Shown one piece after another: positions 8,351-58,000 of a DNA stretch of 64,000 nucleotides (positions within the stretch are counted from its first letter, which is position 1; the number at the start of each line of letters is the position of its first letter). The position numbers were made by a program, and so were the translations under genes. This DNA comes from Sphaerodactylus townsendi (lineage: Eukaryota), in NCBI RefSeq assembly GCF_021028975.2, contig NC_059434.1:88660001-88724000 (forward strand), given 5' to 3'. The notes under the pieces are model-generated. The model ran no database searches and was not told the origin of the DNA. It worked only from the letters and a program-made list of their open reading frames with translations.

Positions 8351-8980
8351 TACTTTCAATGTTTTTTTAATCTAGGGAGCCCAGATTCTCCCTTTAAAAT
8401 CCACTCCAAAAGGGGGGTGGATTTAAAGGGAGAATCAGGGGAAAATTTGAGGGTGCTTGTCAGGAGGAAGCAAATATTTTAAGATAACAGTACCAAAATT
8501 TTAGGCGTATCTTTAGGAGACTATCCTGATTATACCACCCCAGGTTTAAGTGAAGTTTGGTTCAGGGGTCCAAAGAGTTATGGACCTTTCAAAAGGGTAG
8601 CCCCATCTACCATTATCTCCCATTGGAAACAATGGGGATGGAGCACTCCTTTTGCGGGGGTCCATAACTTTGGACCCCCTGAACTAAACTCTTTCTCCAG
8701 TAACCTGGGTGAGTATCAGAAGGAGACTATCCTTATGATACCACCTAGAGTTTAGTGAAGTTTGGATTCAAGAGGGTCCAAAGTTATGGACAGCCCTCAA
8801 AATGACTCAGCCCCATATATGCTATTAGCTCCCCATTGGAAACAATGGAGGATGGAGGTCACACCCCTTTGGGGGTCCATAACTTTGAGACCCCTGAACC
8901 AAACTTCACCAAACTTGGCTGATATCATCCAGGGGAGAGTCTCACCTTGACGATAGCCCTGAGAATTTTGGTTGCCGCTC

Positions 8981-11900
8981 TATGAGGAATTCCATAGAAG
9001 CAGAAATAAAAGGCTCTTTTTGGTGAGGAAAAGACCCGGGTTTAATTTCAGACTATCTTAAATAATTACCATGCGACATGCGAGTGGCAGGAATGACACT
9101 TCGGCCATGAAGCACAGGTTATAACTCTATTCACTACATCATCCCCATCCTGCTTCCCCATGGGAACGCAGTCCTCATCTCCTCAAGCAAGATAAAGTCT
9201 CCTACTGATGAAGCTGGCCTGTATCAGCCGGGCTGTGGAATGCACTCCAAAGGGTTACCTTACCATCAACACCATTGAAACCATTAGAACCTTACACACT
9301 CTGCCTCCGCCAAAGAAGACCCTCCCCCCCCCAGGTTTTGCTACGGAAGAAGTAGCGATGTGGAAAGCATGAGGAAATAGAGGTGGGAAGTCAATATTTG
9401 GAATAAACTCCATTGATTATACCCAGAGGAATATCCACCCAAAGAGACTAAATATTGCAAGCTGTTATGACAAAGCGAGTCCAGGATGGCGTCAATTTCT
9501 AAGTAGTGCTTGGCAGCCATGTAATAGTCGGTGGGGCCTCTCCGGCCGGAGTGTGCCGAACACATCGGCGGGAGCCTCCCTTGAGTAAGCTGGAATGGAA
9601 GACATTGGATAGATGAATGTTACTAAGAGAGTTAGGCAAACCGTCAACCCGGGCAGTGACATCGTAAATCGCTTTAGTAATCTGAAAAAGGTCCTTAATG
9701 AATCTTTACACTTAAGTTCCAGAAGAATTTATGCCTGCATCTCGAGATTTTTGCACAGTGAACAAATACACCCAAAGCCCACGCAGAGGGAAATCGGCGG
9801 TGTTTATCCAGCACAGCTTTTTTTGGGGAGTGCCTGTTGGAGTGCCAGGGTATGTCTGACCGATTTCCACCCTCAAGACTGGGGCGAAATCCCATTGTTG
9901 AAACTCTGGAGGGTCCCAAGCAACCATGGTGGTAGTTGTGCAACTTGTGGAAGGAGCGACCAGACATTTACTAATTTAAAGAGGGTTTTCTTGTACCATG
10001 AACCGCATTTGTTATAGGCTCCATTCAAGCTGGAATAAGCTCTCGCACCAAATCTGTCTTGGTGGTAGTTACTGAATTCTTAACAGCAGTAAGCTACTAC
10101 TCTAAGGTTCTATTTGGATTTCTCTCCGACTCACGTCACTTTTGAGCGTGGTAGGAAGCGACTGCAGGGCTGACCCCAACAAATCCCAAAAACGCCCAAC
10201 TAGAGGCAGGAAATGAATTAAATACGGGCCTTGATGGGAGACCACCTTAACAGAAGGAATGTAGACAGTACAAGCTATGTTGAATGAACAGCCTGGCCAA
10301 CTTAGGAGGCCGGAGGATGGGAAGCAACATGGAATAAGAAATAGGCTGTTGTTTAGAAAATAAGTCCACCACCACCCACACAAAACATGGTACTTGCCAA
10401 GGACTTTTCGAGACGGAATCTGGTAGCCAAAATCCATGGGAGATGACTTCCCAAAGAAGGGAGGCCACCGGGAGAGGTTTTTTTTCAACAGCCCATGGGG
10501 CTTTCAGGATAGTTTAGGCTTCTGCACAAACAGAAAGCAGCCCTTACTCATATATGCCCTCAATGTCCTTGCGCATTACGCCGGGCCACCAGGAATGTCG
10601 CAGTGATTTAAATGCAGGATTTTCAGAAGCCAAAATCGTCCAGCCGGCCCGGGCGTCGGATGACAGGCTTCAAAAGAACCTGCTTGGCGGAGGGGAGAGC
10701 ACGCGTACCAACATTCCCCCTCCGGCTAAACTCCATTCCTCCGCTTGCCGGGTTGTAGAGTCCACTGCTACCGCTGGAGGCTTCACTGCGGCAGCCCCGC
10801 TTCCTCGAAGTTCCCGCGAGTAGAGGGAGAGAGGACTAGGTTAAAGGCCAAGTGGAGAGGAGGAGTGGGCGTTTGAGATAGGGTGACAGCCGGCCCCAGC
10901 TGGGAGGAGAGGAGAACAGTGCGTGCGATATGTCTCGTAGAAGGCAGCTCCACCCCTCTCCCGAGGTATAGCCGCTTGACGCTGGTCAGCCAGTTTATTA
11001 GTTTCCAGGAAAAAATGGGCTATAAGCTTGAGAACGAAAGAAAATACATTATGGAGTTGTTTCTGAGACATCTTGAGAGTCAGGTGGAAAAGAGCTGCCA
11101 GGTTTTGTGATCAGAGTTCCAAACCTGAAAGGGTGTTTAGCCCCCCTCCAGCCAGTGGCGCCAAGTGGAAGTGCTACTTGGTAACGTTCTGCAGTCTTTA
11201 TCCCTAGTCCAGTTAGAGTTTCCAACACCAGAGAGAATTTCTTAATTAAATAAGCACCGCGGAACCAGCCTGCAATATTTGTTTTTCTGCAGGCAGGGCT
11301 GCCCTCAGGGCAATTGGCTTTGGTCCAGGGGACATCCACGTGAACCACTGGCAGGAGATCTGGAGTCAGGAGGTGCTTTGGGAATGCAGTTGGTGGTAAA
11401 AGCAGACTTTGAAGAGTTGAAAGGCTGGTTAATACCTCTTCAGACCAGGAAAAGGAGGGCCCCAGGCTTCTGGTGGACGGTGGATCTTACACCTTTGCAT
11501 TAATTAGGGATGCTGTGAGAGGGAGAGTCAGGGTCAAGCCGGGTGGGAGGTATAAAGTCACGCGATAGAAATTAGCAAAACCAAGAAAAGGTTGGAGTTC
11601 TTTATGCGGTTGGTGAGGGGGCAGGCCATTGGAGGACTGGGCGTCCAATTTTCCCAACAGGATCCATTTTCAAGCTTCTCCTCGGCTGCAGATCATTGGC
11701 CCAATGAAGTCAATGGAGGTCTAGGTGAAAACAGCGTTTGGAGAGTTTGGCAAAGGGGGAAAGATTGTCGGGCAAGTTTCAATTACCTCCGAACCAATGT
11801 TTCATGCTCTTCTATGGTTTGTGGAAGGTAAATTAAAACGCGTCATCTAAGTATACCACAACTCCCTTTGTACAATAAATCATGGAGAACTTAGTTGATA

Positions 11901-14900
11901 AGGGCCATAAAAGCCCGGGGGGCCCCACTTAACCGAATGGCATTATCAAGTATTAACAAGGCTATTAAACTTTGTGTTAAAACGGATCAAAGTGTTCATA
12001 GCCTTCAGCAATTCTGGACCCTGTAGTAGCTTCTCTCAAAGTCCAATTTAGTAGAAATCTTTGGGCCCTAGTGCATCTAAGGGTCCTTGATCAAAGGCAA
12101 AAGGATATTTATTGGACAGGGAGACCGCGATTGAGACCTCGATAATCTGTGCAAAGCCAGTAGGGGCCCATGTAACTTTTTTTGCGAAATAAGCCCGGAG
12201 CAAGCGTGTGTGTCTGGTAGCCATACATTATGAACCCATGGCGAAGCCAGGTTCTTGTCCAAGAAGGCACGTAAGCTCCTTCTCCTCATTTTGGGACTCA
12301 TCTGAAGGGTAGTTTCTACGCTTTGGGCATTCTAAGCCCTGGTTTGTATAACGATTTTGCAGTCAGTGTCTCTATGGGGTGGCAACTGATGCATTCTTGC
12401 TCCCTGAAAAAAACTCTGGCTAGATCACTTGATCCTTGCAGGTGGGATGTCAATAGAATCAGGAACACCAATGGCTGGGAAAGAAGCCAGGGAGGGGTGT
12501 GTCAGGAGAAGGTGGAGTTTTCCCCCCAATTCATGTGTTCACCATAGGGAGGGTCAGTGGTTCCAAGATCCGTTCTTTCCAAAATGAACTTTGGTTCATG
12601 TAACAACTCTTTCCATGGCATACCCAAAAGCGATGGAGTGTTTGGCCACTGGCGTCAAAATAAAACTAATTTTCTCCCAATGGGTGTATGAACGGAGGAG
12701 AACCGGCTGTGTGTTTTTGAACTGGGCGGTCCTTAGTCTCGAGGGGCTGCCGTCCATTCAGGTGAATGGTATGGGCTTAGCCAGAGGAATTTGTGAGGTC
12801 CAGACTTCGCTCCTCTGCCGCCTGGGGCGCAAAAGATAAGCAATGGGAGCAACCAAGAATCCACAAAAGGGCGAGAATGAAATGCGAGGAATGTGTTTGT
12901 GAGGGTTTGGCCAAGCAACGCTTGGACAAAGTAATGGGAGCGCTACCTTCACTCAGCGTCCAGAGTCAGAGGACCCATGTCCATGGGGGGGGGGCTGAAG
13001 AAGACGAAACAGCTGCTTCCCCTCTCTGGAATTGCGACTTCGAGTGATCAGCTTTAGGCGAAATTCACCGTCCGAGGCTATGACCCCGATCGTGGCGCGG
13101 GTGGCTTGGCGCTTGGGTGGAGTGCTTGTGAGCTGGAGTAGTTAGTTTTGTTTTCATGGGACAAGTTGCGCCATTGGATGGCCTGGCCCCTCCGCCAGTA
13201 AAGACACAATCCCAGTCCGGCTAATTTCCGTTGCTCGAGGTGGTTTTGGGATGCGGCTGGGCTTGGCTTGGCGGAAGCGCTTAGTGGGTTTAGGCGTGAA
13301 GGCTTCGACGCACGAAGGCGTGTTCAAACGAGGATACATGCACCCTGGGATCCCGCAACTGGATCAATCTGCAATGATACGAAGGAACCCGAATTAAAAA
13401 CACCGTTTCCGCGCCCAGCTTGCTGCCGTCCACAGCATCCGAGAAGTATTAGCGATTTCATGCGTTCAGGCCACTTCCAGGAGGGAGTCGAGCAACCGCC
13501 GCCGCGGGAATTCGCGGGCAAAATTCTGCAAGCGATTAGGTTGCCCTGCTGAATAGTTTTGATGATGCGGGGATGGCTTCACTTCTCGGCGCTGGATCGC
13601 TAGGCGGCTCTTAAGGCCTGGAGGAATCACCGGGGCACCGTCTTGCAGAGTCTTCATCTTGCAAATCAAAAGGAGTCCACCGAACCAGTCGGGCGCTGCC
13701 CACATCCAGGACTGAGCCGATGTCCCGTATTTTTCAGCTCAGACCGGGGTATAAATCATCATAGTCTTCCAAGCTGGGCATTGAGTTGCAAAATGAAGGC
13801 GTAGGGAAGTTTGGAGGCGGTCCCATCAAAGCGGACCGGGTGTCGGGGCCTCCATAGTAACCCCCCCCGTTCCACTGGCTCTTGGCGCCTCGCTAGGCGT
13901 GCATGGTTGCTTGTAGTTGAAGCAGGTTGGGCGGGCGGCTGTTGTCTGGGGGCCCGGAATCCGGCGCTGGCGGTGCCGCTGGCGTTTGGGTGGCAGGACC
14001 CAGATGCGTGGCCCCCTGGCTTGACATTAATGGCTCAGTAACAGCATAGACTCCAACTTGGGGCTTCCACAGTCTGGCTGCCTCCGCCAAAACTTCCCTC
14101 TCTAGCAATAGCTCCCAGCTCTCCTTATGCGGGTCAATGCATCCCTGGTAAGCATTAAACAGCTTTTTTTTTCTCGACGCCATTCCAATTCCAGCCAGTT
14201 AAGTCCCGTTCAAAGCTGCAGTGAGCTCACTTTTGCGCGGCGATAAGGCCTGAAAGCGCTTTCGCAAGGTTACTATAAATCCGGTCTGGAGTGTTCCAGG
14301 ACTTTATCATGGACCTGACGGATTCTGGGCATATTATTAGTTAGATAGCATTCTTTGTACCGGTCCAACTCGAAGCTGGAGATCTTTCGCGTTAAGCAGC
14401 TTCCCGGTCCCTCACCAAGGTTTTAGCTCTTGCTGCAACTGTGCCCGTTCTTCCTCCCATTTTAGCGTTCAATGGTCCACATCACTTCTTGGGCATCTCG
14501 CGGTCGCCTTCCCACTTCCTCATCCCAGGTCTCCCCCCCCTTAAGATGTGGAGAGGGAACAGATCCGGCTGGGAGTGCAGGCTTTCCTCCCGGACTCTTA
14601 AATCGTCTGGAAAGCGTAGACATCCCGGGGACACCCGTAGCCACCGGTGGTGGCTCCCCGAGGCACCTCCAGGTCGGTCAGCTGGCCGGGATCAGGGGGG
14701 GGGGTCCGGTTGGAAAGCGGTGCGGATACCCCTCCCAATCCCCAGGTTCAGTCCCAGTGTCCTTTGGGCCAGACCCCAGTCAGCATGCCGCGGTGGTTCT
14801 TTGGGAGCATCCACTCAAAAATCTGAGAGTCCAGGAACCGTTCAATATAGATTCCTGGGTTGCACCGCCTCAGCAAAGGTGGTCCAGGCCGTCTCCTCCA

Positions 14901-15591
14901 TATTGAGTTGCATCTGAGGTTTGTGAAATCCACACGCAGCGGGTAGAGATCCGGATCCACAGGCATTTCGCATCCATAGACAAGCGCTAAGCGACTTTCA
15001 TGTAAGTCCCTGCATGGTGCGTGCGTCACGTCCCTCGTTCCAGCGGGTAGGAAGGGAGACTTCGCATGCTGTCTGAGGGGCGAGGAAAGAGTTTCACTGG
15101 CGCAGGCCCGTTCTCCTGCGGTTCCTCCAGATCCAGAAGGGAAAGATTGAAGACCCTTCTTTGGGGGGCTACGCGCCTCCGCAATGACTGTCCAACCTCT
15201 CGTAATGAGCAGACACTAGAGGTCCACTGCACCGTGGTAAATAGATGGATTAGGTTTTACGCTTACAATGTAAGGAATTCCATAGAAGCAGAAATAAAAA
15301 AGGCTCTTTGGTGAAAAAGACGTTTATTCGAGACATCTTAGAAAAGCTCAAGAGTACAATGCGGTAACAGGAATGACACTTCCTCGGCCAGAAGCACCAG
15401 GTTATAACTCTATTCACCGCATCCCTACCATCCTGCTTCCCCATGGGGCTCTAGGAATTCCTCGTATCTCAGCGCCAAGAGAGATAAAAGTCTCCGCCGA
15501 TAGAGCTGGGCTCCATCCCGCCGAGGGCTGCTGAGATGCACTCCGAGGTTACCTTACCATCAACACCATTGAAACCATTGAAACCTTTACA
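8981..15591 (-). mobile_element. Ty3/Gypsy LTR retrotransposon, Tf1/sushi (chromovirus) type, copy 1; full length, ORFs frameshifted
   Basis: LTRs are 8981-9296 and 15269-15591. TSD is ccgct (8975-8979) / ccact (15592-15596). A purine tract lies next to the 3' LTR. Minus-strand motifs: gag PVRFDG (~13830) and a degenerate CCHC knuckle (~13160-13210), RT KGVVVYLDD (YLDD 11853-11842), integrase, and a chromodomain-like EIDAILDS...LQYLVS (~9400-9520). Confidence 0.93.
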
Positions 15592-31405: not shown

Positions 31406-32447
31406 TAAGAACATAAGAACATAAGAACAAGCCAGCTGGATCAGACCAGAGTCCATCTAGTCCAGCTCTCTGCTACTCGCAGTGGCCCACCAGGTGCCTT
31501 TGGGAGCTCACATGTAGGATGTGAAAGCAATGGCCTTCTGCGGCTGTTGCTCCCGAGCACCTGGACTGTTAAGGCATTTGCAATCTCAGATCAAAGAGGA
31601 TCAAGATTGGTAGCCATAAATCGACTTCTCCTCCATAAATCTGTCCAAGCCCCTTTTAAAGCTATCCAGGTTAGTGGCCATCACCACCTCCTGTGGCAGC
31701 ATATTCCAAACACCAATCACACGTTGCGTGAAGAAGTGTTTCCTTTTATTAGTTCTAATTCTTCCCCCCAGCATTTTCAATGAATGCCCCCTGGTTCTAG
31801 TATTGTGAGAAAGAGAGAAAAATTTCTCTCTGTCAACATTTTCTACCCCATGCATAATTTTACCAGACTTCCAGTGTATCCCCCCTCAGACGTCTCCTCT
31901 CCAAACTAAAAAAGGTCCCAAGCGCTGCAGCCTTTCCTCATAAGGAAGGTGCTCCAGTCCCTCAATCATCCTTGTTGCCCTTCTCTGCACTTTTTCTATC
32001 TCTTCAATATCCTTTTTGAGATGTGAGACTTGAACTGAACACAGTACTCCAAGTCTTGGTCGCTGCTTTATATAAGGGCATGACAATCTTTGCAGTTTTA
32101 TTATCAATTCCTTTCCTAATTATCCCCAGCATAGAGTTTGCCTTTTTCACAGCTGCCATACATTGAGTTGACATTCCCATGGAACTATCAACTAAGACGC
32201 CCAAATCCCTTTCCTGGTCTGTGACTGATAGCACTGACCCCTGTAGCGTGTATGTGAAGTTTGGATTTTTTGCCCCTGTGTGCATCACTTTGCATTTTGC
32301 TACATTGAACTGCATTTGCCATTTCTTAGCCCACTCACCTAATTTATCAAGGTTCGCTTGGAGCTCCTCGCAATCCTTTGTGGTTCTCACCACCCTACAT
32401 AATTTGGTATCATCTGCAAACTTGGCCACCACGCTACCCACCCCTAA
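31406..32447 (-). mobile_element. Young 5'-truncated CR1 LINE in WDR54 intron 6
   Basis: Minus-strand ORFs VAKFADDTKLCRVV...MQFNVAKCKVMH...ERDLGVLVD, EKVQRRATRMI.GLEHLPYEERL and FFTQRVIGVWN. Ends in an (ataagaac)n terminal repeat. Confidence 0.95.
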
Positions 32448-34617
32448 TCCTTGTGTGATTATTTGGGCAGAGTTGGCCACGGGGCCTGTGCGGGGGCAGA
32501 GACCGGATGTTGTGGAATGCAGACTCGCTTCCGGTCCTCAGCAGGGATCCCACTGCTGTGATTTAAATACTGGGTGGCACCTGCACGCTTTGGCATGATC
32601 TCTCTCCACTGAGCCTGCTCTCCCCTTCCTGCCCAGGTGCCCCTGTTCCTCCGTCAAGCTGTGGAATGGGGTGATTGTGGCCGGTTACGGCAGCGGCCAG
32701 ATCCGTCTCTACGAAGCAGCCAGCGGCACCCTCCGAGCTGAGGTGGCTGCTCATGCGCGCTGGATTTACGCCCTAGACCTGGCTCCACTCTCAGGGAAGG
32801 TGAGTCTGTCCCTTGCTGGAACACCTGGGATCCCTCCTGAGTTCCCTCTGCTTCTTGCTGATTGGGGGCCACTGGCTTCCTTGGCTCTCCCTGAACTTTA
32901 AGGGTTTGCAGACGGGCCCATTTTCTGGAGGGGGCCTGTCTCTCCTGCAGCACAGGGGTGTGTGGTGAGGTGGGAGGGACTGGACACATGGGAATGGGGG
33001 ATGCTCCCCTCGGAGGGCAGGCAGGCAGGGAAGGATAGGAAGAGCTGCTCTGCTCGTGTGGTGTGCCATTTCTGGCCAGCAAAGGTGGGGGCAGCAACTA
33101 GGGCCAGCTGAGAGGACAGAGAAGTCTGCCCAAGCATAGCTCCTGCTTTCAGAACAAAGTGGGGGGGCTCAGCCCATCCTGACCCGTGAGCTTCCTGGAG
33201 GGGCCCACCTGGCTGCTTCCACTCCCCCCTCGGTGTCTTTCTGTCATGCAACTCCCAGGAGGGCCCCCACCCACCCACCCCGTGAGCTGTTTTGGGCAAT
33301 GAAGGCAGATTCTCCATCTCAAGCCTTCAGCCTGGGGCCGGGGAGAGAGAGCACACCCTCCCTGCCTTTCCTTCCCCCTGCAGCTGCTGTCGGCGGCCGA
33401 GGACTCTTTTGTGGCTGTCTGGGAGCTGATGTTCAACCTGGACACTGAAGACATTGAGGTAAGGGGTGTGGGGAGCAACCTCTGTGCCACCCTCTTCCCC
33501 AAGGGAGCCCTGAATCCTGCCTGGGTTCAAGAAGCTGCTTCAAAGAGCCCCCCCTCCCCCGCCACAACTGACTGATCTGGCTCAGCTTGGCCATTGGCTG
33601 CGTCCTGTCCACACGGCATCCTTAGCCTGGGACCCGATTTAACCCTGAAGATATTTGGCACCTGCACCAGGGCTCAGGGCACAGAAGGCCTTAGGAGGGG
33701 GGGGGTGCCCATTTTGGAAACAAATAACCCCCACACCCACCAGAAGCCCCGCAGGAGGAGACAGTGCTGTCAACCCTGCCGAAAGGCAACACGCGCATCC
33801 TTCTCCTAGCCCAGGACTGGTTGCCCTGGCTCAGTTCTCTGCGAGGCTGGAGGGAGAAGGGCTGCCCCGGGGAAAAGCCCCCTCCGCTGATGCGGTTGTG
33901 GGAAAGGCTGGGAGGGGGGAGGGTGCAAGGAGGGCCGGGCCGGGCCAGGCAGGCCATCCCTTGTCCTTGACCGCTGCCAGCACTATGTGCCCGCTGTGCC
34001 CAGAACAGGTCCCCCAGCCCTCCCCCCCACCCCGAAGGTTGATTCTTGGGGTCTGCTGGGGGTAATTCCTGCCGAACTCCTTACAGATCAGGCACTGCCA
34101 GACGGAATGTGTGACAGACACGCAAATCTGCGGGGCCCGCTTCTGTGACCCAGAGGGCAGCACCTTCGCCGTCACCGGCTACGACCTCAGTGAGATCATC
34201 CGCTACGTCCAGCTGTAACACACACACACACCCATGCAAACAGGCAGGGTCAGACACTAACCTTGGAGGGCAGCATTTACTCTCTGGGGCTCTTGGACAT
34301 CTCAGCCAGGAGCCACCACTGGAGGTGCCGTCCGGAAGCTCTGGCCCCCAGGCACATTCTGCTCGAAGCTCCGCTGGCTGGCTGGAGCAGGAACGCTGGG
34401 CCAAGTGAAGAAGATCCCTGTGCGGTCAGAGCCCTTGAGACAGGCCCCGCCCCTTCCTGCCCAGATGGAGCCCCCGCCCCCCCCACTCCTTCATGCCGGC
34501 CCATTCAGAGCCGTTCTCGTTTGGCAGGCCCCTCACCGTTGGGGACCAGCGGGGACAATGTTAGGAATGGAATAAGCTTCCATGTTACAAGGTAATTTAT
34601 TTGTGTATATAGAGAAG

Positions 34618-35885: not shown

Positions 35886-36939
35886 AAAGGTTAAAACAGT
35901 CCAATACTTAAAAGTGTGTAAGAAAATGAGGGGCGGACTAGGCCCAATTCACAGTGGTTAGGAAGAGAGATGCGCATCAGCCTCGGGGTTGGGGGGGGGG
36001 GCGGCATCCGTCAGAGCCCTTCAGGACAGGCAGTGCTGCAAACAGCACCACCCAGGGAGGTTTGTGCTCAGCTGAGGCAGCAGAAAAAACAGGACACCTA
36101 GAAAAAGTGTAAAACGGTTTGTGTAGAATTCCTGGGGTGGGAAGGAAGGAAGGAAGGAAGGAAGGAGGAAGAGGCCCCTCCCCGCCCTGGAGATCGGGAA
36201 TAGCCTGCCTTTCTCCCACCAAGGTGCCTCCAGGGAGGGAGGGCAGCCCCCCCCAAGGAGATGGGGGAGGCTTGCATTGTGTCCAAAGGCACCACGAGGC
36301 CCAGAAGGGGTGCCAAACGCAGCTCCGCCAAAGCAGCAGCCTGAAGCTGCACTTACAAACTACAGACCTTTACAGAATTGCTACCCTTCCCCCCCCTCCC
36401 ACCAACGTACAAGTTCCACGGTTCCTTATCTTTGCATGCACTCCCCACACCCATCCACCCCCCACCCTTCCCCCGACAGTCTCAGCAAGTGGTATCACAA
36501 CTTCAGTTCCAGCCTATCAACCAGAAGAGATCTTTCTCCGTGCAGGAGCCCCGTGTGGGGAGGAGCCCAGGCCCTCTGCTGCCTCCTCACCTGCCCCCCC
36601 CTCGGCTGGGGCCCAAATACTGCTAAGGTCAGAGGTAGCAACTAGAGAAAGGCTGGTGCGAGGCCTGGGAGTGCAGTAGGCCCCGTCTCCAGCACCAGGT
36701 ACAACAGGGGTGTAAACACCAAGTGAAGGCGCGGCGGCAGCGGCAAGAAGCACAGAGCCGACAGGAAGGCAGACGGCAGGTAAACGACGCAAGGAGCGGC
36801 TCTCCCTTCACGCCTGGCGGGCAGGTAGGCAGAAAGCCCCGACGCCCTCCCCTCTCCTCCCCCCCATAAAGGCACGAGCAAGGCTGGCAGCCTGGTGTCT
36901 GTCCCCTTTTCCTGGCAGGCGGGGAGGGCGCGGGGCCAC

Positions 36940-42700
<5,761 letters not shown>

Positions 42701-44519: not shown

Positions 44520-45770
44520 ACTCAATGGGTGAAGAACAGAGGGGGTCACATGGATTTTTTTGGCCTTCCCTTTCCCAGGATGTGAAACGGTGTTTATTGT
44601 CAAGGCTGCTCAGCATGTCAAAGAGTCTCCAACGCTGCCCCCCCCCTTCGGGCCCCCTTGTTCCCATTCCTGTGATCCAAGTTCCATTCCAGCAGACCGC
44701 TGTGGATCCCAGAGGGCTTCTACCATGTGCACAATGAGGAAGTGGATATCTGTTGGTAGTTGTGGATTGCGCCACCCGCTACCCTGAGGCCGTGCCCTTG
44801 TGTACTCTTAGAACCAAGGGGACGAGCATGGAGGCATCTTTTTGAACACATGGGGCTGCTCAGGGAAATCTTAACGGGCCAGGGAGCTCCGCCCAGTGGT
44901 GGGATCCAAAAATTTTAGTAACAGGTTCCCGTGGTGGTGGGATTCAAACAGTGGCGTAGCGCCCATGGGGCTGAGCGGGGCACGACGGTGCGTGGTCGGG
45001 CATTCCGGGGGCGGGGCATTAATAATTTCTCTGTTACTGCAAAAAGCTCTTACTGTAAAAAAAGTTCCTAATTTCCAGCTGGTATCTTTCTGTCCATAAT
45101 TCAAACTCATTATAGCCAGTCCTATTGTCTACTGCCAAAAGAAACAACTACTTCTCCTCTCATTGACTGCCTGTCAAATACTTAATACTTTCAAATACTT
45201 AATTTTGTTTCTAGAAATCAAAAGAAGGATACTTTCCTTAAACAAGGAACTTTACCATATTTCTAAAACATGTTTTTAAAACAGCCCAACAGGGAGAATT
45301 ATCCCGTTTTCTACCTTCGCTAACCAGCCACATAGGAAACAACAGGACTTGATGATTTTTGGACCTAATGGAATTTCTAACAGAAAAGCAGACCCAATGA
45401 GTAACCCCCTCTCGGCACACATAAATAATTAGTAACCCACTCTCGGGAACTGGTGAGAACCTGCTGGATCCCACCTCTGGCTCCGCCACAGCGCAGGTGA
45501 CCAAGTGGCTCCACTGAGTGTTGGGGCTAAGGCAGAAGTTCACAGCAGCTGTGCTCCTTCAAACAGACAAGTTAGCAAAGCGCTTCAATCAGACCGTCAA
45601 GTTAGTACTGAAGGGAAGTAGTGCATGATAAACCTGCCCAATGGGACCTCTTGGTAGACCCCTTGCTGTTCATGATGAGAGAGACCCCCACAGGGCATGT
45701 CCCATTCCAGCTGCTGTATGGGCAGAAGCCCCACGGTCTTTTGGATGTAATGAGGGCCAAGTTGGTGTCC
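44520..45770 (+). mobile_element. Old Gypsy integrase remnant interrupted by a hAT MITE
   Basis: Plus-strand fragments PLVPIPVIQVPFQQTAVD, YLLVVVDCATRYPEAVPL, GLLREILTGQG and WDLLVDPLLF..RETPTGHVPFQLLYGQKPHGLLD. Confidence 0.8.
44894..45479. mobile_element. hAT-type MITE (586 bp)
   Basis: TIRs cagtggtgggatcc / ggatcccacctctg. Perfect 8-bp TSD gctccgcc at 44886-44893 and 45480-45487. Confidence 0.9.
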
Positions 45771-46700
45771 CAGGAGCCTGGGGAAGGCAGCCTGTCCCCA
45801 AGGACAAGCAGCAACTCTGCTCCCCACACCCCTCCCTCACCTTCCCCCCGGGAGGCAAGGTTGGGGGGCCTCAGCAGAACCCAGGAGGGAGATAATGGCA
45901 CACAAATCCCGACCCCCTTGGACAAGGACACTTGGAGCCATTCTCTGGGCAGCTTTTTCCGCAGGGCCCGAGGGGGGAGGTGAGGGCTGAGCATGCCCGG
46001 CTTGGCCGGGGGGGGGGGGAGGGGGGCGGGCAGGGGGGACAGTATCTGCCTGGTAGGGAGTCAGCCAACAATTGAGCTTCATTTCATCATACACGCACCA
46101 ACCCTAACCCTAGCCCTCCCCATGGAATACCAAAAGCTCAACACTTGGTCTGTATGCAGCATCGCAGCCTTCCCATCATCAGCTACACTTCGACAAAGAA
46201 AACAGTGAATATATATATTTAATGTGTGAAGGAGGAGAGGTAGCCCTCCCGCATAGGTTGGCATGACCCCTCCCCACAACATTGGCACAAATCCCTGAAC
46301 ATCAGGATGAGAGCAAAGGGGCGGGGGGGGGCAGGATTCCAACACCGAGCTCCCCCCTCCCCCGCCAGTCCTGGAGGAGGCCACCTTCTGCCACCACAGC
46401 TCCCTTTCCCCAGGCCGAAGCACCCCCGTCTCTCCCCGAAAGAAGGACTCTTTGCTCCTGGGCTGACACCTGAGACATTTTCTGGCCAGGGCAGCCACTC
46501 GGTCCCCGGCCCCAAACTCCCCTCCACAGGGGCCCAGGTGGTCCAAGCTGAGGCAGGATGCGGAGGCAGCCCGGAAGCCCCGGCTCTCGCAACGAGACGC
46601 TGCTCCCGAAAGCTGCCAGCACCCCCTGTCAGTCACGCCAGTCCCGCCTCCTCCGAGGGACCTTGCTTCCCTGCCCCAAGCAGCCACGAAGGACGTCTTG

Positions 46701-49700
46701 TCAGACCTGGGACTGCAGCCACAGGCGAGGGTCGAAGGTCGGGTGGGCCCGGGGGTGCAGCGGCGGATGGGTGGGCTCTGGGGTAGGGCTCCCGCTGCTG
46801 GAGGAGCTGGAGCTGGAGGGAGACGGGCCGTGGGTCCGAGGCAGGGGCGGGCGGCTGGAGCGTCCATTCAACAGGCTCAGCTTGGCATCCAGGGAGAGGG
46901 TGCGAGGCCGCCTCCACGGAGGGTGCAGCAGGCGTGGGCTGGCGCTGGAGTTGCTGTCACTGTCTGAAGCCACGGCGGGAGGGGGCCCTGGCCCCTCAAA
47001 GAGGGACAGCCACGCAGGGCTGCCCAGACCTGATACCCGACGAGCCAGGATCTCTGTCACGGCCTCGATGTCATCCGCTGGTTCAATAGCTGGAAGGGAG
47101 AGGGGCGGAGGAAGGGAATGACCACCCTGTGCCTCGGAGGGGCTGCGCAGGAGAAGGCAGGGTCGCAACACCCCCTCCTCTGCTCTTGCCCTTCAGGGGT
47201 CCACCCGGCCTCCAACAGCCCCCACGCTGGCAGCCGCTCGCCCTGCAGCCCCAGCACCCCCTTCCCACAGACAGCTGCCAGACGGCAAAAACCTTCGCAA
47301 AGCACCCTCCCCCCCCACGCCCGATCTACAAAGGCTGGTGTGGGGCTTTGAGGGGTCAAACACCCCCCACTGGAGCTGCAGGGAAGCAGTCCCCCTGAGG
47401 CTACAGCCCCCCAGGATCAGTCGCATCTTTCAGGCAGCATAGGCTGAACTCTTCCCCCCCCCCCCCCAATAGAATGGGACAGGCTGGGAATTCTGAAACA
47501 GGTGCCTCCCCCCTCCCCCCAGGTGAAACAGAACTGGCTCTCCTGCCTCTCAGCTGGAGTTTCCCCCAATCCAAGCAACAACTTTCTCTACACCCCCCCC
47601 CCCCCACGGGGTCCTACCTCCCGTCCAGCTGAATTACTTCACCTGTCACTGTAATAGGAGGAGAGCAGAGCCCGAATCTCCTCAGAGACAGCGGTGTCCT
47701 GCAACAGAAGCCCCTCACAGGCGGAGGGCAGCCCCACGGGGCCAGGGAAAGCTGGGGGTGGCGGCATGGGGACAGAGAGGAAGAGACACAGAGGGACACA
47801 TGCAGAGAGAAAGCAGGAGGAAAGTACAGAGTTACAGACACATAGATCCGGGTGGGTGACGCAAAAGAGAGATGTGGGGTGGGCCCATGGAAACAGAGGA
47901 GTGAAAACGAGCCCTAGAAGGAGCAGAAAACAGAGAGCCCTCCCAGCCCCCGCCCCAGGCAGGGAGCCTTGCCCCAGGCGGCCCGTGTGCTGGGCTCTGA
48001 TGGCCCCTGAGAAAATGACCCTGCAGCCCCGGAGGCAGCTTTGGGGTTTGCTTTCTCCACTGCTTTCTCCACTTTCTCCTGGGCAAGAGGCAGGATTTGT
48101 CTACCACAGAGGGCCGAGTTCGGATCTTAGTAGCTACCTGCTGTGAAAAAGGCCCAGCTTTCCGCACTAAGGACTGCAGAGAGCACGTCTTGGAGTGGGG
48201 AGGGCATGCCTGGAGCACCCCCAAGAGCCCGGGAGCGGGGTTTAAGATACACAAATAATGTGCACACAGAAGCCGCCGTCACCGTTAATTTCTGTGCCGG
48301 GAAGAAGAGTTCTGTCCGAGTAATTCTTTTGCTCCACTTAAGAAGCTCTAAATGCCGGCAGCAATTGAAGTCTCAGCCCCATGGACCCAGGGACAGAGTT
48401 GCTGGGCCGGATTAGGTCTGCTGTCCCCCCGGCCCCCTCTGCCAGGCTCCCAATCTCCCCTCTCCTTTCCGAGAGGATGGGCACCATCATGACATCAGGC
48501 ATCAAGCCCCTCCCCACACCTGCTTACCTGTCTCATGATACAAAGAGCCCTGCTTGGGCAGCTGAGCAGTGGGCCGGCGCGGGGAGGGCACCTCCACCTT
48601 CATCAATTCGTCACAGCAGCGCTTCCACTGACCTGGGGCAGGAGGGGGACAGTTAGCGAGACCCCGCCCTGTCAATCCAAGGGTGTCAGTCAAGTGCTTG
48701 ACCACTGTCATGTGGCCCCCCAAGACCCACAACAGCCCTCTATCCCCACCCTCTGTAAGGAATTCCATAGAAGCAGAAATAAAAGGCTCTTTGGTGAAAA
48801 AGACCGTTTATTCAGACATCTTAGAAAGCTCAAGTACACTAGAAAGTGGCAGGGAATGACACTTCCGGCCAGAAGCAATAGGTTATAACTCTATTCATCC
48901 CATCCCCTTCCCAGCCTCCCATGGGAACGGGAGACCCTCATTCCTCCAAGCGCAGAGATAAGGTCTCCATGCGATGAAGCTGGCCCATAAAGCCTCGGGC
49001 GTGCGCGGAATGCACCCAAAGGTTACTTTACCATCAACACCATTGAAACCCTTACACTCTGCCTCCCTTTAAAGAAGACCCCTCCCCCCCAGGTTTATCT
49101 TGGAAAGTTAGCGCCAGGAAAGCTTAAAGAAATAGGGCAGAAGGCCACACATTTTACAGGAATAAACCCATTGAGTTATACCCAGAGGAATATCCCACCC
49201 AAGAGACTAACATTGTGCAAAGCGTTTGCCATGATTAAAAGGAGAGTCCAGGATGAAGCGCCAATTCTCAGAGTGCTTGTGGCCATCAATACAGTCGGTG
49301 GGGCCCTCTCGGCGGTCAGGCTGTGGGCATCGGAAGTGCCGGAGCCCTCCTTGAGCAAGCTGGAATGGAAGACAGGATGAATGTTACCAAGAGAGTAGGG
49401 CAACTCAACGGCAGTGACATCATTAATCACTTTGAAAGTAATTCGAAAAGGTCCCACCTAATCTTGCCAAGTCTGGAAAATTTATGCACATCTCTGAGAT
49501 TCTTAGTAGACAAATACACCCAAGCTTCACACGCAGAGGGAACTGAATGTTTATCCGAAAAGCTTGCAGCTTTTGGGAGTTCCAAAGCCTGTTGTGGCAA
49601 ATGTTGTCTGGACCCATTTCCACCCTCGCTAGGGATGAAATCCATTGTTGAAACTCTGGAGAGGTCCAAGCTGTCATGGGTAGTTGTGGCAACCTTGGCG

Positions 49701-52700
49701 GGAAGGCGACACTAGACACAATTTCCCTCAAAGGGTTTTTTTTTTGTACTTCTATGAACCGTGACATTGTTATAGAAATTACGCCATATAAAGCGAACGA
49801 ATGAGCTCGCACCAATTGTCCTGGTGGTAGCTGGTGTAACAACGCATTAAATACTGCTCTAGAGGTTCTGTTCGCTTCTCTCCGCCTCACCGTCCACTTG
49901 AACGTGCGGTGGGGCGGCGACCAGCTGAAGGGCCCCAACAAACCCCAAAACGCCTTCCAGAACTCTTTGAAATGAATTGGAGGTCATGGTCGAGACCACC
50001 TATAACGGGCTGAAATGTAGACCTATAAACATGTTGGAATGAACAGCCGCGCTAACTAGGATGCGGAGGAGGGATGGAAGCACACGAGGAATAAAATGGG
50101 CTTATTTAGAAAATAAGTCCACCACCACCCACAAAACCGTGTTAAGGCATGACTGTCGGCAAGACCGTCTGTAATAAAAAATCCCATGGAGATGATGACT
50201 TCCCAAGGGCGGAGGCCACCGGGAGAGGTTTCCCAACAGCCCGCTGGGGCTTCCGAATGGTCGGCTTCTGCACAAACCGAGCAACCTTTAATATACGCCA
50301 TCGTCCTTGGCGCATTATGCTACACCAGAACTGGACGGCGGGCTCAAATGCAAGAAGTTTTCAGAAAGCCAAAAATGTCCAGCCGAAGCCAGGCATCGCG
50401 GCAGGCTTCCAGAACCCAAGCTTGGCGGGAGGGGGGGGGAGGCACGCACTCAACATTCCCCCCCTCCGGCCAAACTCCCATCTCTCAAACGCACTGAGCT
50501 CACTTCCTCCCTGGAGGCTCGTGCAGCCCCGGCCTCCTCGAAGTCTCCAAGAGGAAAGTGGGGGAGACGAAAGGACTAGGAATGCATGGGTGGAGGAGGG
50601 GTGGACGCGTTGAGATTGGGCAGGACAGCCAGCCCCAACTGGAGGGGAGAGAACAGTGCGTGGAATGTCTCCGTATGTTCAATGCACCCCCTCCTCGGTA
50701 GCTAGCTGAGAGGCCTGCGTCAGCCAGTTTATTGGTTTTCCAGGGGAAAAAAATGGACTGTAAAAGAGAACAGAAGAAATGAAGCCCAACGGAGTTTGGA
50801 GCTTCATGAGTGGACTCTTTACCTCTAGTCGCGTTAAAGCAGGTCTGTGAGAGGGAGAGTCAGTTCAGTTAATTGGGGTATAAAGTCCACTATAGAAATT
50901 AGTAAAACCAAGAAAAAGATTGGAGTTCTTTATGGTTTAATTTGGTGGGGCAGGCCAATTGGAGGACCGCGGCCAGTTTTAGCAGGGATCCATTTTCAAG
51001 CCCTCATGGTGATCCGGTAACCCAAATAGTCAATGGAGGTCTGGGTGAAAACAGCATTTGGATAGTTTACAAAGAGAGTTGTCGAAGCAAAGCGCTTCAA
51101 TACCTCCAACCAATGCGTTTCACATGCTCTTCTATGTAGTTTGTGAATAAATTAAAACGGCCATCCTAAGTATACCTACAACTCCCCTTGTACAATAAAT
51201 CGCTTGGAGAACTTCGATATGGGCTATAAAACCGCCAAAGCCCGGGGCCCCTAATTCTAACCCAATGGCATTATCGGGCATTCAAACTGTCCAAACTTTG
51301 TGTTAAAGCGCAGTCAAGTGTTCATATCCTTCCAGCAATTCTGACTCTGTAGTAGAAGCTTCTCCCAAGTCCAGTTTATAAAATGCCTGCTTGCCCGGAG
51401 TCGCCTAAAAGCGTCCCCGATCAAAGGCAAAGGGTATTTATTGGACAGGGAGATCGTAATGGCGAACCTCGAGTAATTCAGCACAAAGTCAGAAAAGACC
51501 CATCTTTCTTTTCACCAAAACAAAACGGGAGACAGCGTGCAGGCGGTAGTTTGGTGCAGTCATACCGTATGAAACCGCTGAACAGTTCTTCTTGTCCAAG
51601 AAGGCACGGTTCCCTTCTCCTCATTGCAAGGACTCATAATGGTAGATTCTACCTTTGGGCAGTTCGCTCTGGTTGTAATAACGATTTTGCAGTCCAATGC
51701 CTCTATAAAGTAAGGCAACTGATCGCATTCTTGCTCCCCGGAAAACTCTGGCTAGATCATGGTACTGCCCGGTGGGATGCCAAATATCAGAATCCGGGGA
51801 GCAATCGCTGATGAAGCCAGGGAGGGGGCGTGTCAGGAGAAGCTGGTTTTTCCCCCACCATGTGTTGTTCAACGAGGGAGGGTCAGTGAACTTTGTAGGA
51901 TCCGTTCTTTCCAAATGAACTTTTGGTTCATGTATCAATAACCATGTACCCAAAACTATGGAGTGTTTGGCCAGAATACCGGTTCTTCAAAATAAAACTA
52001 ATTTTCTCCCAATTGGTCGCGAACGGAGGAGAACCGGTTGTGTTTTGAACTGGCCGGTCCTCGTTCTCAGGGGCTGTCATTCATTTTAGGCGAATGGTAA
52101 GGAGCTTAGCTAGGGAATTTGATCCAGACCTAGCTCCTCTGCCACCTGGGGTCAGTATTAAGCAATGCTGCCGCAACGCCAAGGGCCGAGGCTGGTACGC
52201 GAGGAATGTGCTTAGCTGGGTTGGCCAGAAGCAACGCTGACAGTAATGGAGCTGCCTTCACTCACCGCTGCGTCAGGGAGGTCGGACCCATGTCCATGGG
52301 GCTGATCAGGCAACAGCCGTTTCCCTCCCCAAATTTAGCCGATGACCAGCTTTAGATCAGCCCGTCGAGGTGGCCCCGACCGCGCGATGGTGGCTTGGCA
52401 AGATGGAGGCGCGGCGGTAGCTGAGCGGTTGGTTTTGTTTCTTGGGACAGTTACGCTAGATGACCTGGCCCCTCCGCAGTAAAGGCACAATCCCAGTCGA
52501 CTGACGCATGCGTTCAGAGGTGGTTTCGTAGAGGGCAGCTGGAAGCTTGACGAATTAAGTGGGCGCAGTGGCAGGTTTTTGGCATGGCCGATACCGCACG
52601 AAGCAGTATTCCAACGACGCCACCTGGGATCCCAACTGGATCCAACTGCTAATGAGTACCGAGGAACCCAATTAAAAACACCCGCTTCAATGAGCGCTTA

Positions 52701-54943
52701 CCGTCATTCACACAGCATCCGAGAAAGTATTCGTGATTTCATGCGTTCAGAGCCACCAGGAGGGAGTCGCAGCAGCCGCCGCATCTAAATTCAATGGGCA
52801 AATTCTGCAACGAAGGTTGTCTTTGTTGGATAGTTTTGATGGTGCTGGATAAAGCTTCATTCTCCGGCTTCGAATCTTGGAAGCCAGCGCTCTTAAGGCT
52901 TGGAGAATCAAGCGGGCACCGCGGCGAGAGTCTTCAATCTTGCAAATCCAAAAGAGTCACTTAACTGTCGGTTGTTGCCCCATCCAGACTGGAGCCGATG
53001 TCCCGTATTTTTTCGCTCAGACCGGGTATAAATCATCATAGTCTTCCAAGTGGGTATTGAGTTGCAAAATAAAGTAGTGAAGTTTTAGCCGCAGCGTCCC
53101 ATCCAAAAGCGGGCCGGTATCGGGGCCTATAGTAACCCCCCCGCTCCACGGCTCTTACTGCAGGGCGGCGCGGTTGCTGGCTGAGTTAAGCAGGTTAGCA
53201 GGCAGCCAACTGCTGCACGGGAGGGCCGAGAATCGGGGGCGCTGGCTGTGGCTGATGGCGTTAAAGTGGCAGGACCCAGGCACATTGGCCTCCTGTTCCG
53301 AGCATTATCAGTAACAGCATAGACTCCAACTTGCAGGGCTTCCCTGGTCTGTTGCACCTCCCTTAGCTCCCTTTCCAACGCAGTCAGTTCCCTCTCCTCA
53401 TGCGGGTCATCGCATCCTGGTGGCGCATGCAGAGCAGCTTTTCTCTCGCTCCACTTTAGCCAGTTCGGCCCCGGGCGAAGCTGCAGTGAGCTCACTTTGC
53501 GGCGCAGGGCTCCGTTGAAGCGGCTTCGCTGCTGTCGGGCAAATCCAGTCTGGAGTGTTTCAGGACTTTATCATGGACTTGCTGGTGATTCTGGAGGCAT
53601 ATTGTCGTTGAGTTTATCTTTGGTAACGCGGTCCAACTTCGGAAGCTGACCTTCTTTGCGCTGCCGCTCCCGTCCCTCTCTGCAGGTTTCGCCATTTGCC
53701 AGTAACTGTGCCCGCTCCTCCTCCCATAGCTGACGCTCACGGGTCCATGCTTCTTGGAGCATCTCGCGAAGTCGCCCCACTTCCTCATCCCAGGTCTCCT
53801 TCGATGGAGAGAGGAACAGATCCGGCGCTGGGAGCGCAGGCTTCTTCTTCGGACTCTTAAATGCGTCATTCGGAAGGGGAGACATCGGAGACACCGTTAC
53901 CGGTGGCTCCCTCAGGCACCTTTACGGTGCGGCTGCTGACCCGGGTCAGGGGTCCATTGGAAGACAGTACGGATACCCCTCCCAATCCCAGGTTTAGATC
54001 CCAGTGTCCTTTGGACGGGCCCCAGTTAACATTGTGCCACAGTGGTTCTTGGGGAGCATCACCAAAATACCGAGGTCCAGGGAACCGCTCAATGTTGACT
54101 CTTGCCGTTTGTTGCCGCATCGAAGGTGGCCGAGCCCGTCTCCTCCATGACAGAGTTGCATCCTGAGGTTTGTAATCCACACCAAAAAACGGTAGAGATC
54201 CATCCACAGGCCTTCCATCCATAGGACAGGCTCCCCAAACGACTCATGTAGGTCCCCATGAGTGCGCCGCCACGCCCCTCGCTCCAACGGAGTAAGCAAG
54301 GAGGAACTCCGTATGATCACGAGGACGGAGAAGAAGTCACCAGCGAGGAGCCCGCCTCTCCCGCCGGGTTCCTCCAGATCCAGAAGGGGAAAGGTCGGAG
54401 CTCTCTTAGCCAAGACTACCGCGACCTTCGTAGGTAACATTCCAACCTCTCCATGTCGAGACACTAGAGGTCCACTGTACTAGTAAGATAGATGGATTAA
54501 GGATTCCTGCCACAATGTAAGGAATTCCATAGAAGCAGAAATAAAAGGCTCTTTGGTGAAAAAGACCGTTTATTCAGACATCTTAGAAAGCTCAAGTACA
54601 CGCAGAGTGGCTTGGGAATGACACTTCCCGCCAGAAGCACAGGTTATAACTCTATTCATCCCATCCCCCTTCCTGCTTCCATGATAAACGGAGACCTCAT
54701 CTCCCGCGCAGAGATAAGGTCTCCGCCGATGAAGCTGGCCCATCGCCCGGGCCGTGGAATGCACTCAAGGTTACTTTACCATCAACACCATTGAAACCCT
54801 TACACCCTCAGAGCCACGGCCAGCATAACATGGTTAGGGGCTCCGCCCCAGTCCTTCCCAGTGGACAGAAATTCCATGCATCACTCCCTGAAAAATAACA
54901 CAGCTGCAGGGCTTCCATCCCAAAGCACGCACCCACCCACCCA

Positions 54944-55011
<68 letters not shown>

Positions 55012-58000
55012 CACCCCATCCCTCCAAAGCTGGATACAGAGTGGCCCCACAGGAATTCGCTTCTTACTCCAAGGTGGATGGAGAACGGCCCGCAGGGCCC
55101 TTGCCGTGAAGGGTCCTTCTCATCGGAGGACAGGAGGACACCTTGCTGGGTGAGGCAGGAAATCATTTCCTGGCGTCCTTCCTCCTGCAGGAGTCACCCT
55201 TGGCTCAGCTCCGTAAGCAGTTTATCTAATCCTGAAACTTGTCAACAAATGTCAACTAACTTTAAAAGCATTAACTCACAGGTAGAATCAACAGAAACAG
55301 TGAAGGTACGTAAACAGGTAAGTGAAGAAGTCATAGAACAAACATAGTAAAGGAAAGGCTCTGAAATGTAGAGGATTCTGACCATGACCACAGGAGGGCC
55401 AAGATGTCCTCCTGGCCTCTGATGAGAAGGAGCCTTCATGGCAAGTGTCCAATGGGCCATTCTCATCGGAGGCGGACACCTTGCTGGGACACCCCCTCCC
55501 CCCGCCGAGCAATGTTCTTTAAATGGGTGATTCTCCAGCATTGCCTGCAACACCCTTCCACCCAGTGCAGTATCTGAAGAATGGCGTTTATTGATTTCAT
55601 GGTGTCTGATGAAAGATGATAGGGAGGACCAGGTGGCCACACACTTTCCACTGAGGCCTGTCTTTTGAAGCCTCCATTAGCTGCCACACTCCTCGGACAT
55701 TTTTTGTCCCTCATTGGGTGGAGATACTGAAATGAACAGTGCTCCTTAGACGTCCTGTCCTGGTAAGGAAACCCTTCCGTCCTCAACAGACATCCAGCCC
55801 CTGCCAGGTGACTTCCTGTGGGTGTTTGGGATCTGGATGGAACGAAGGGAGGTCTACCTCTGTGGGCCTCAAGGCAAAAGGTAGGGCCCAGAGGGAGCAG
55901 GATCTGTCCTTGGGGAAAATGTAGAGGTCTCTTCTCATGGGCTCCATGTTCCGAAGCCCTTCTAGTTGAGGTTCTTGCGGTGAGGAATAGAGCTTTCATC
56001 CTGAGGAATTTTGACGGAACAGCGGTTGGTTAGAACATTAAGAGTTTAGGCTCCTCCATGAAGGAATGCCATGAATGGGGGGGGGGGTGTCCTTATCAGT
56101 GGCTCCCTTGAGGAAGCACAAAATTAGAGGATGTTGAGAAGGAGGAAAACCTTTGAATATGGTAACACTGTAGCTGGTGCTGCGATTGGCCTTTCAAGGG
56201 TGCTAGCTCTCAGCCCCTTTTCTCCTCTTTCGTGGAGAAATGGTTGCACGTGTTGCAATTCTGGACTAGTGCTGGTGACATGTTTTCCTGTGACACCAAC
56301 GGCACTGGAAATCAGCAGCCCCAGTAAAGCCAATAAGGCCATCGGTGGAGGATGCTTGCTGCTGAGTACCGCGGAAGACAGTTCCTTGGTCTTGGCAATC
56401 TTCCTCTCTGGGAGCACGAACTGGTTGGTGGCTGTCCCAATTAATACCCCCAGATGCTCTAGAGTCTGCAAAGATTACAGGCGACTCTCGGACACGTTGA
56501 CTAGAAATCCAAATTCCTGAAGAGTGCTGCTGACAACCTGCGTGTCCTCAAATAAGCCTGTCGTCCATGAAAGGATGTCGTTTGTTCTCCTTTTCCCTCA
56601 GCCTGATGATGGGATGGAAGAGCATCTTGGAAAATACTGTGCGTGCCGTGGCGAGGCTGAACAAAAGCGCAAAATTGGAAGGGAAGATCAGCCACGCAGA
56701 ACCCAAGGAATCTGCGGTGACTGCGATCCATTGGTACATGGAGATAAGCTTCTGTCAGATCTGCAGACAGGAGAAATTGTAGGGTTGTAGGGATTCTGAG
56801 TTGTTCTAGGGCTGTAGGGATTCTGAGAAGTTCTGAAAAGTTTCCATGTGGAAGTGTTTGGTCCTGGTGAATCTATTTATGAATTTGAGAACTAGTATTA
56901 TATGCCAATTTCTGTTTTTCTTCTGTACTGTGAAAAAAAAAATAGAATAGATGCCAGATCCCCTCTGCAAAGGAGGTACCAGTTCTATGGCCTTGCTCTG
57001 CAGAAGGTGTTGTACTGGCTATTTGTTTCTGAATCGTTGGAGAAAATTATTTGAAAATTGGGAGGGAAAGAGGTGATCCAGTGGGGTCCAATAAAATACT
57101 GTTGAATATCCCTGAGTCACTATTTCTAGTGTCCATGCATTGGTTTGGGTGCTGACCCATTTGTCCTGAAGTCCCATTGTTTGGCCTGTTTATTGTTCTT
57201 ATCTTCTTTGTCAACTCTGTGAAAGTTGTTTCTGGGAAACCTGGGGTTGAGGTGGTAGAGCACACCTTGATTGCCATAATCGTCGCCTCCTGGGCCTTGC
57301 AGAGTGCTTTTTGTCTAGACTGCCCTGTAAGTTACCAGCTCCATCCTCTGAGACGAGTCCAGAAGATTGTAGGGTTGCTATGGGAGCATCAGTCAGTGGA
57401 ACCTGGAAAAACTGGTTAGTAGAAGAGGGTGAGGCATAAAGCTTTCTGGCATAGGCTGGGAGGTGTCTGTTAGACATGGGATTAGCCTGTTCAGATTTAA
57501 TCTGTTCTTCTAGGTGTTCCAGCATAGGAAACAGACATATCTGTCCTGGGGGAAAAACTCCTTGATGCCCTCAGGGCGTTTTTTCTCTTTGGGAGCAGAG
57601 AGCTGATTTCCCCGCCTTCCCCTCGTTTTTCTTGCAGCTCAAGGGCTTGCAAGGTTTGGGAAGCAAGTTATGTACAGTCACCTGCTTTAAAGGACCTGGT
57701 GGCAGGTTCAGGTGATTCCATTTCAAAGAGGTGAGGGGTGCCTACCAGATTAGGATTAAAGTCAGATATCAGCTCAGCAGTAGCAGAATGGAGTGTGCCA
57801 GACAGTGGCCCCTGCTGTTTGCAAAACACTTTCTTCTTCCCTCATGGATTTCCTCACGAAGGCTGTGAGAACCGGAGGAACTTCATAGTCATTGTGAATT
57901 TGGGAGGATCTGAAGGTAACTGCTGCCTCTTTGTGGCTGGGGGTAGGAACGCGGACGGTCCTCCCGGCCACTTCCTGCTCCTGGCTGACCTGAAGGGCGT

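Follow-up and report, generated by a model that had tools for sequence, protein, structure and literature searches.

The window analysed here, a stretch of 64,000 nucleotides from Sphaerodactylus townsendi, contains two related and decayed Ty3/gypsy LTR elements, both on the minus strand, whose family very probably primed reverse transcription in the manner of Tf1, without a tRNA; we give this reading a probability of about 0.88. The first-pass annotation had proposed self-priming from an 11-nt RNA, and this reading is supported since the 11-nt match prevails in the family contigs and has no human cytosolic tRNA 3' end as a competitor. By every sequence test run the family behaves like Tf1. 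The mechanism itself is already known; what is new here is another host group, which does not change the picture. In the proposed scheme, RNA polymerase II would start at an initiator A about 30 nt after a TATA-like box (the predicted start), and the transcript's first 11 bases would fold back and pair with the primer-binding site (PBS). The RNase H of the element would then cut after base 11 and free the primer, a step carried over from Tf1, the reverse transcriptase (RT) would extend it through a 2-nt spacer into U5 and R, and once strands had been transferred the 3' R would serve to restore the primer sequence. Of these steps, the start of transcription, folding in vivo and the RNase H cut are inferred.

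According to the available portions of the papers cited here, self-priming was shown experimentally for Tf1 of Schizosaccharomyces pombe (PMC7175516, PMC5341516), with a primer of 11 bases released by a cut between bases 11 and 12 (PMC7175516), in agreement with the 11-nt mechanism that the first-pass annotation had taken as known. Its further statement that self-priming had been proposed for the Tf1/sushi group is likewise in print, vertebrates included: the same portions describe self-priming as a common feature of the group (PMC10085805, PMC6317226) and, citing Butler et al. 2001, as implicated from fungi to vertebrates (PMC10085805, PMC6317226, PMC4600332). Furthermore, a vertebrate V-clade has been defined that is present in fish, amphibians and amniotes (PMC2774666), and full-length chromoviruses are reported in reptile genomes (PMC3670739). 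For the vertebrate relatives, self-priming is so far only "implicated" or inferred in this literature. Our search, mainly of non-subscription literature, returned no study of this family, of self-priming in a squamate or gecko, or of a vertebrate in which it was tested by experiment, which does not establish absence from print. A literature search for the letters of the PBS gave nothing relevant, the supplement of PMC9943672 being free of matching text, and the portions available of PMC11042837 and PMC4340606 held nothing decisive.

The features of the two elements are, beginning with copy 2:

54805..54809, minus strand, left copy of the 5-bp target-site duplication of copy 2
54516..54804, minus strand, 5' LTR of copy 2 (TGT...ACA)
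54644..54648, minus strand, TATA-like box of the copy-2 5' LTR
54607..54619, minus strand, deviant form of the putative self-primer motif, copy-2 5' LTR; predicted +1 at 54619
54569..54574, minus strand, AATAAA poly(A) signal within the predicted R, copy-2 5' LTR
54514..54515, minus strand, 2-nt spacer between 5' LTR and PBS of copy 2
54503..54513, minus strand, copy-2 PBS, to which an LTR 11-mer is exactly complementary
49092..54502, minus strand, copy-2 internal region, broken, with leader, gag including a CCHC motif, protease, RT-RNase H and integrase
51767-50837, minus strand, RT-RNase H of copy 2, about 0.5 kb of RNase H missing
49457-49332, minus strand, SH3-like module of copy 2, then putative chromodomain traces in separate frames
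49057..49091, minus strand, purine-rich tracts before the copy-2 3' LTR, candidates for the PPT
48754..49056, minus strand, 3' LTR of copy 2, 88% identical to the copy-2 5' LTR
48846..48857, minus strand, putative self-primer motif with one extra base, copy-2 3' LTR
48749..48753, minus strand, right copy of the 5-bp target-site duplication of copy 2
15269..15591, minus strand, 5' LTR of copy 1
15374-15364, minus strand, deviant motif of the copy-1 5' LTR
15255..15266, minus strand, degenerate copy-1 PBS, which pairs usefully with none of the LTR motifs
9297..15254, minus strand, copy-1 internal region, broken, with gag, protease, RT-RNase H, integrase, SH3-like module and a putative chromodomain remnant
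12429-11001, minus strand, RT-RNase H of copy 1
9502-9407, minus strand, putative chromodomain remnant of copy 1, directly after an SH3_Tf2-1 match
8981..9296, minus strand, copy-1 3' LTR, with an ambiguous right end and target-site duplication
9084..9094, minus strand, exact putative self-primer 11-mer, copy-1 3' LTR, whose first base is the A of a YYANWYY initiator match
48887-48883, 15406-15402 and 9123-9119, minus strand, TATA-like boxes of the other three LTRs

Copy 2 has paired TG...CA LTRs and a target-site duplication, as for an LTR retrotransposon, and copy 1 has both LTRs, which are 77% alike. The internal regions of the two copies are about 71-73% alike and carry about 20 frameshifts per 300-440 codons; both copies are dead. 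The order gag-PR-RT-RH-IN can still be followed, the tblastn pieces being colinear in both copies with the proteins P0006, P0017 and P0021. Pfam on 78 stop-to-stop fragments gave two SH3_Tf2-1 matches and three weak unrelated ones, and nothing else; the putative chromodomain remnant at 9502-9407 is the best match in the six frames of the window, with an E-value of 0.017 (0.002 pairwise), below the Pfam threshold. AATAAA also starts at 48812 and 15328, with ATTAAA in its place at 9046. As a side observation, some RNase H sequence of copy 1, about 0.5 kb long, is absent from copy 2 at about 50803-50837.

On the minus strand the LTR ends in ...CCTTACA at 54516 and is followed immediately by TT-GTGGCAGGAAT-CC (54515-54501). 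The 11-mer of this PBS (54513-54503) is the exact complement (11/11) of the LTR 11-mer at 9094-9084; on the minus strand of the window each of the two occurs once, and there is no pairing at either base adjoining the 11-mer duplex. Complementarity over 11 nt at offset 2 lies within the range given for self-primers in the available part of PMC6317226, namely at least 10 complementary nt beginning 0-5 nt after the LTR. For the PBS, placed 2 nt inside the LTR by the first-pass annotation, both coordinates and letters proved correct, and the complements that it had listed, perfect at 9094-9084 and with one extra base at 48857-48846, were both found. It had also cautioned that the copy-1 PBS and both 5'-LTR motifs are degraded, and indeed all three deviate from the 11-mer. 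The two partners of the exact pair lie in different copies, the PBS in copy 2 and the 11-mer in the 3' LTR of copy 1, so that no single transcript of the window carries the pair perfectly; in the native fold, the deviant motif of the copy-2 5' LTR still forms 5+5 bp with the PBS. Two further observations concern the PBS. The copy-1 5'-LTR motif (15374-15364) and PBS (15266-15255) show two reciprocal differences from the family form, which may be covariation or chance. The base after the PBS of copy 2 (54502) is C, as it is in 9 of the 14 distinct PBS types, copy 2 included (binomial p 0.017 against 1/3, for related loci that are not independent); it would face the G of the cap and is a possible footprint of a capped primer.

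Promoter geometry supports the 11-mer as the predicted 5' end of the transcript. This 11-mer begins at the A of an initiator-like TCATTCC, which matches YYANWYY and is present in all four LTRs, at a distance of 29, 30, 29 and 32 nt from the first T of TATAA; the spacing of 29 nt for the box at 9123-9119 had already been noted. The box reads TATAAC, which is a weak TATA box.

The family was further examined in contigs from four of eight listed public runs (X1, X3, X5 and X6, with three organism labels) aligned on 54380-54830. The four runs gave 6398, 1981, 550 and 62 aligned contigs, hence the family is highly repeated. The 11-mer of 9094-9084 accounts for 97.6, 99.7, 100 and 100% of the summed depth over the LTR motif in X1, X3, X5 and X6 respectively, from 41, 14, 4 and 2 contigs across the motif and at a depth far below that of neighbouring positions; among the loose contig ends listed, those in X1 and X3 agree with it. 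Between 54498 and 54550 no alternative letter reaches 10% in the contigs of any of the four runs, in counts that favour window-like records (at least 80% alike) and in which a contig with a different PBS would be clipped and go uncounted. The 11-nt match, which the first-pass annotation expected of the family as a whole, is thus its prevailing form in the spanning depth. Separately, two contigs in X5 and one in X6 have loose ends at 54591 with a different 11-mer at the predicted start, and these apparently belong to another subfamily and offer the most promising lead on covariation inside the family. With its very high copy number, clean 11-nt signature, canonical TATA-initiator spacing and apparent subfamilies, this squamate family is ready material for counting covariation and, in an amniote host, for mapping the capped ends and the cleaved ends of its RNA. 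Moreover, PBS finders that rely on tRNAs will miss self-priming families, as this one probably is.

The nearest protein is Sphaerodactylus townsendi LOC125424948 (P0006), a gene-model protein compared here as protein, with 53% identity to copy 1 and 57% to copy 2 as measured on X-marked RT-RH read-throughs; the next best proteins reach 45-48%. A FastTree phylogeny of the RT-RH region was built from 49 sequences and 438 columns, comprising both copies, 32 of 125 proteins and 15 of 88 related loci, with a guide profile that left out the gecko protein. Both copies are sister to the gecko protein (support 0.999), this group lies inside a lizard-snake clade (1.0), itself inside a vertebrate clade (0.98), and the latter is nested among chromovirus-like elements of fungi, protists and metagenomes. 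The placement within the squamate clade of vertebrate chromoviruses supports what the first-pass annotation had called a squamate family, and the family is probably a chromovirus of squamates in the Tf1/sushi group. Within that group it most likely belongs to the V-clade, a name taken from the host and the domain content because the tree holds no named sushi, Amn or Tf1 reference, nor a non-chromovirus outgroup. Two candidates, P0003 and P0004, were rejected as relatives, being unrelated repeats; a protein search with a 65-aa fragment gave no match, and a search of viral contigs for the LTR-end/PBS pattern gave 0 matches.

Several likenesses to known systems go with this placement, those with a citation resting on the parts available of the papers. 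With Tf1 and Tf2 the family shares an 11-base LTR segment complementary to a PBS just inside the 5' LTR and the Ty3/gypsy domain order, and it may share a chromodomain, here a putative remnant below the Pfam threshold; the 5-bp target-site duplication is shared with their fission-yeast relatives (PMC10085805). It differs from Tf1 and Tf2 in that the host is a vertebrate, the primer letters are separate ones, the copies are dead and the start site and cleavage are predicted ones. With the vertebrate chromoviruses it shares a tree position among polyproteins of fish, frog, lizard and snake, most of which have a chromodomain, and with Sushi the TGT...ACA ends of the LTRs and an AATAAA near the LTR 3' end (PMC3601003). 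For vertebrate members of the Tf1/sushi group self-priming is inferred too, through the papers that cite Butler et al. 2001. In the plant Tcn1 clade a self-primer was predicted by the same criterion of length and offset as was applied here, but the hosts there are a moss and a club-moss (PMC6317226).

The layout of the signature recurs in the relatives. A TATA-linked complement of at least 10 nt was found in sense orientation in 17 of the 88 related loci versus 4 of 88 in antisense (Fisher p 0.004). Under a stricter rule, fixed after the hits had been inspected, the counts are 15 sense versus 1 antisense among the 88 loci, many of which are without a whole LTR, and represent 10 distinct PBS sequences. 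These matches lie mostly at offset 2 and start at an A 30-35 nt after the TATA. This signature scan replaced a scan for LTR pairs, since many of the 29 terminal repeats that the latter returned in the 88 loci were contig overlaps. All three fish-clade loci have a complement of 9-11 nt in the 3' LTR at offset 1-2, with different letters in each. Hence, the layout is kept in the relatives while the letters change, as self-priming predicts. Covariation within the family itself was not demonstrated. The three fish-clade elements (L010, L011 and L012) come from public metagenome assemblies, each with a 9-11 nt self-primer signature, and two of them have a TTAA-type motif instead of a TATA about 30 nt upstream.

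Folding of the RNA was predicted for the leader. In copy 2, the native R-U5-PBS from the predicted +1 through the PBS gives -29.1 kcal/mol (z -2.58, with 2 of 200 shuffles as stable) and is predicted to form one long hairpin that places the 5' end on the PBS and pairs R with U5. The copy-1 leader, whose PBS is degenerate, fails to fold in this way (z +0.43). The in-silico fold of R-U5-PBS that the first-pass annotation had suggested as a check is therefore borne out for copy 2 and not for copy 1. Furthermore, a U3 control from the copy-2 5' LTR (54620-54743) forms a strong hairpin at z -3.41, beyond that of R-U5-PBS, hence a good z-score is not specific. The two-strand duplex of the exact 11-mer and the PBS is worth -19.6 kcal/mol; in copy 2 the pairing probability of primer and PBS falls from about 0.9 to at most 0.3 when a leader of 180-320 nt is folded. 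For Tf1, the available part of PMC10085805 describes a "pretzel" in which two side duplexes flank the primer-PBS pairing. The central duplex and an R/U5 hairpin are the elements of such a structure that are predicted in copy 2, where the flanking duplexes do not rise above shuffles (40 of 100 and 21 of 100 shuffles as stable). Only 1 of 16 side-duplex tests is below 0.05, in a test that is weak, as relatives passing it number 4 of 11 downstream and 0 of 11 upstream.

These folds bear on a rival reading that accepts the complementarity as real but assigns it to RNA folding, to packaging or to a switch of translation, or takes it for a relic, with priming by some other route; the local U5-PBS hairpin could then be the relevant structure. 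The end of U5 does carry 6 nt of the primer motif, which can form a hairpin of -8.4 kcal/mol with the PBS, and the side duplexes at the level of shuffles also agree with this reading. However, a conserved primer copy at the U5 end had to be rejected, as only 3-5 nt of it are present in 11 relatives whereas the layout of the LTR 11-mer is kept, and the search gave no alternative primer that matches over the same length. We consider this reading improbable, at odds of some twenty to one or worse.

A tRNA as primer is the other kind of alternative. The human tRNA reference used, with CCA appended (261 cytosolic records and the mitochondrial ones; PMC13023127, supplement 5), serves as a proxy for the host. 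The 7-mer needed at a 3' end occurs at the 3' end of 0 of the 261 human cytosolic records; it is present five times in the human set, always within the anticodon loop of Gly-GCC, so that no human cytosolic 3' end fits the PBS. A consensus PBS matching a tRNA 3' end had been named beforehand as the result that would speak against self-priming, and no cytosolic match of this kind appeared in the human set. None of the 31 tRNA probes of PMC7428014 (supplement 5) fits the PBS, ARAGORN found 0 tRNA genes within the window, and Rfam gave nothing near threshold at 54300-54900.

An 8-nt stretch in the Gly-GCC anticodon loop is complementary to bases 1-8 of the PBS, so that a 5' half of tRNA-Gly(GCC) ending there could act as the primer. 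The 8-nt match is found in 4 of 5 human Gly-GCC records and at the end of the PBS suited to priming, and half-tRNA priming does exist in some copia lineages, according to the part available of PMC6317226. However, the match covers 8 nt only, against 11/11 for the LTR motif, and by rough arithmetic some 8-nt tRNA match has a chance of about 0.2. In plants, the same source gives half-tRNA primers only in Ty1/copia, with Met or Ile (PMC6317226), and the relatives of the present family retain the LTR complement with other letters. Priming by such a half in place of the element's own 5' end is accordingly hard to favour. A double use of the PBS, which would pair with the element's own 5' end while 5' halves of tRNA-Gly(GCC) could also prime or block the family, is a long shot as well; if true, it would place a vertebrate element on the border between priming itself and being primed by tRNA halves.

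Conventional priming, in which a full tRNA would use the TGG that begins 3 nt after the LTR, is slightly less probable still. Besides the TGG at this offset, the 3' end of human mitochondrial tRNA-Trp matches over 6 nt exactly, and over about 10 with one G:U pair; no human tRNA 3' end, mitochondrial ones included, matches the PBS exactly beyond 6 nt. A mitochondrial tRNA normally would not reach cytosolic particles, which counts against tRNA-Trp. Moreover, 0 of 261 human cytosolic records offer a 7-nt match at the 3' end and 0 of 31 tRNA probes fit; a full tRNA would also leave the LTR 11-mer unexplained.

Concerning chance, shuffles of the 20 nt that follow the LTR gave at least 11 matches anywhere in the four LTRs in 177 of 200,000 cases, and 40 of 11,272 internal 20-mers, from 4 sites, have at least 11 LTR matches. 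The expectation becomes about 6e-5 when position is taken into account (PBS offset 0-3; start 24-36 nt after TATAA). A chance match or an assembly artefact, which the unusual richness in indels of both copies and the four internal sites with 11-nt LTR complements would favour, is largely refuted by independent contigs that show the same two motifs, as well as by the low position-aware expectation and the recurrence of the layout in relatives, and is next to negligible.

The LTR pairs are rich in indels, with 14 indels to 16 substitutions in copy 2 and 28 to 31 in copy 1. Among other repeats of the window, the pair 31409/63294 has 0 indels to 17 substitutions and the tandem at 64-451 has 2 to 31. 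The excess of indels in both elements may be due to assembly or polishing errors in a high-copy family, which makes part of their "decay" and any LTR dating doubtful; dating by LTR divergence was dropped because the indels equal the substitutions in number. Furthermore, the two LTRs of copy 1 resemble each other no more than LTRs from separate copies do, hence copy 1 may be a recombinant.

Elsewhere in the window, 56501-56872, 32004-32537 and 45612-45983 contain fragments that by eye resemble a DIRS-type RT, a CR1-type RT and a gypsy-type integrase respectively. Two host genes are presumed, also by eye, on the minus strand, namely a short-chain dehydrogenase/retinol dehydrogenase at 3800-7000 and a RhoBTB protein at 36600-42000. 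Finally, a palindromic tandem repeat of about 194 nt forms two clusters, at 36-510 and 8477-8972, one of which adjoins the 3' end of copy 1.
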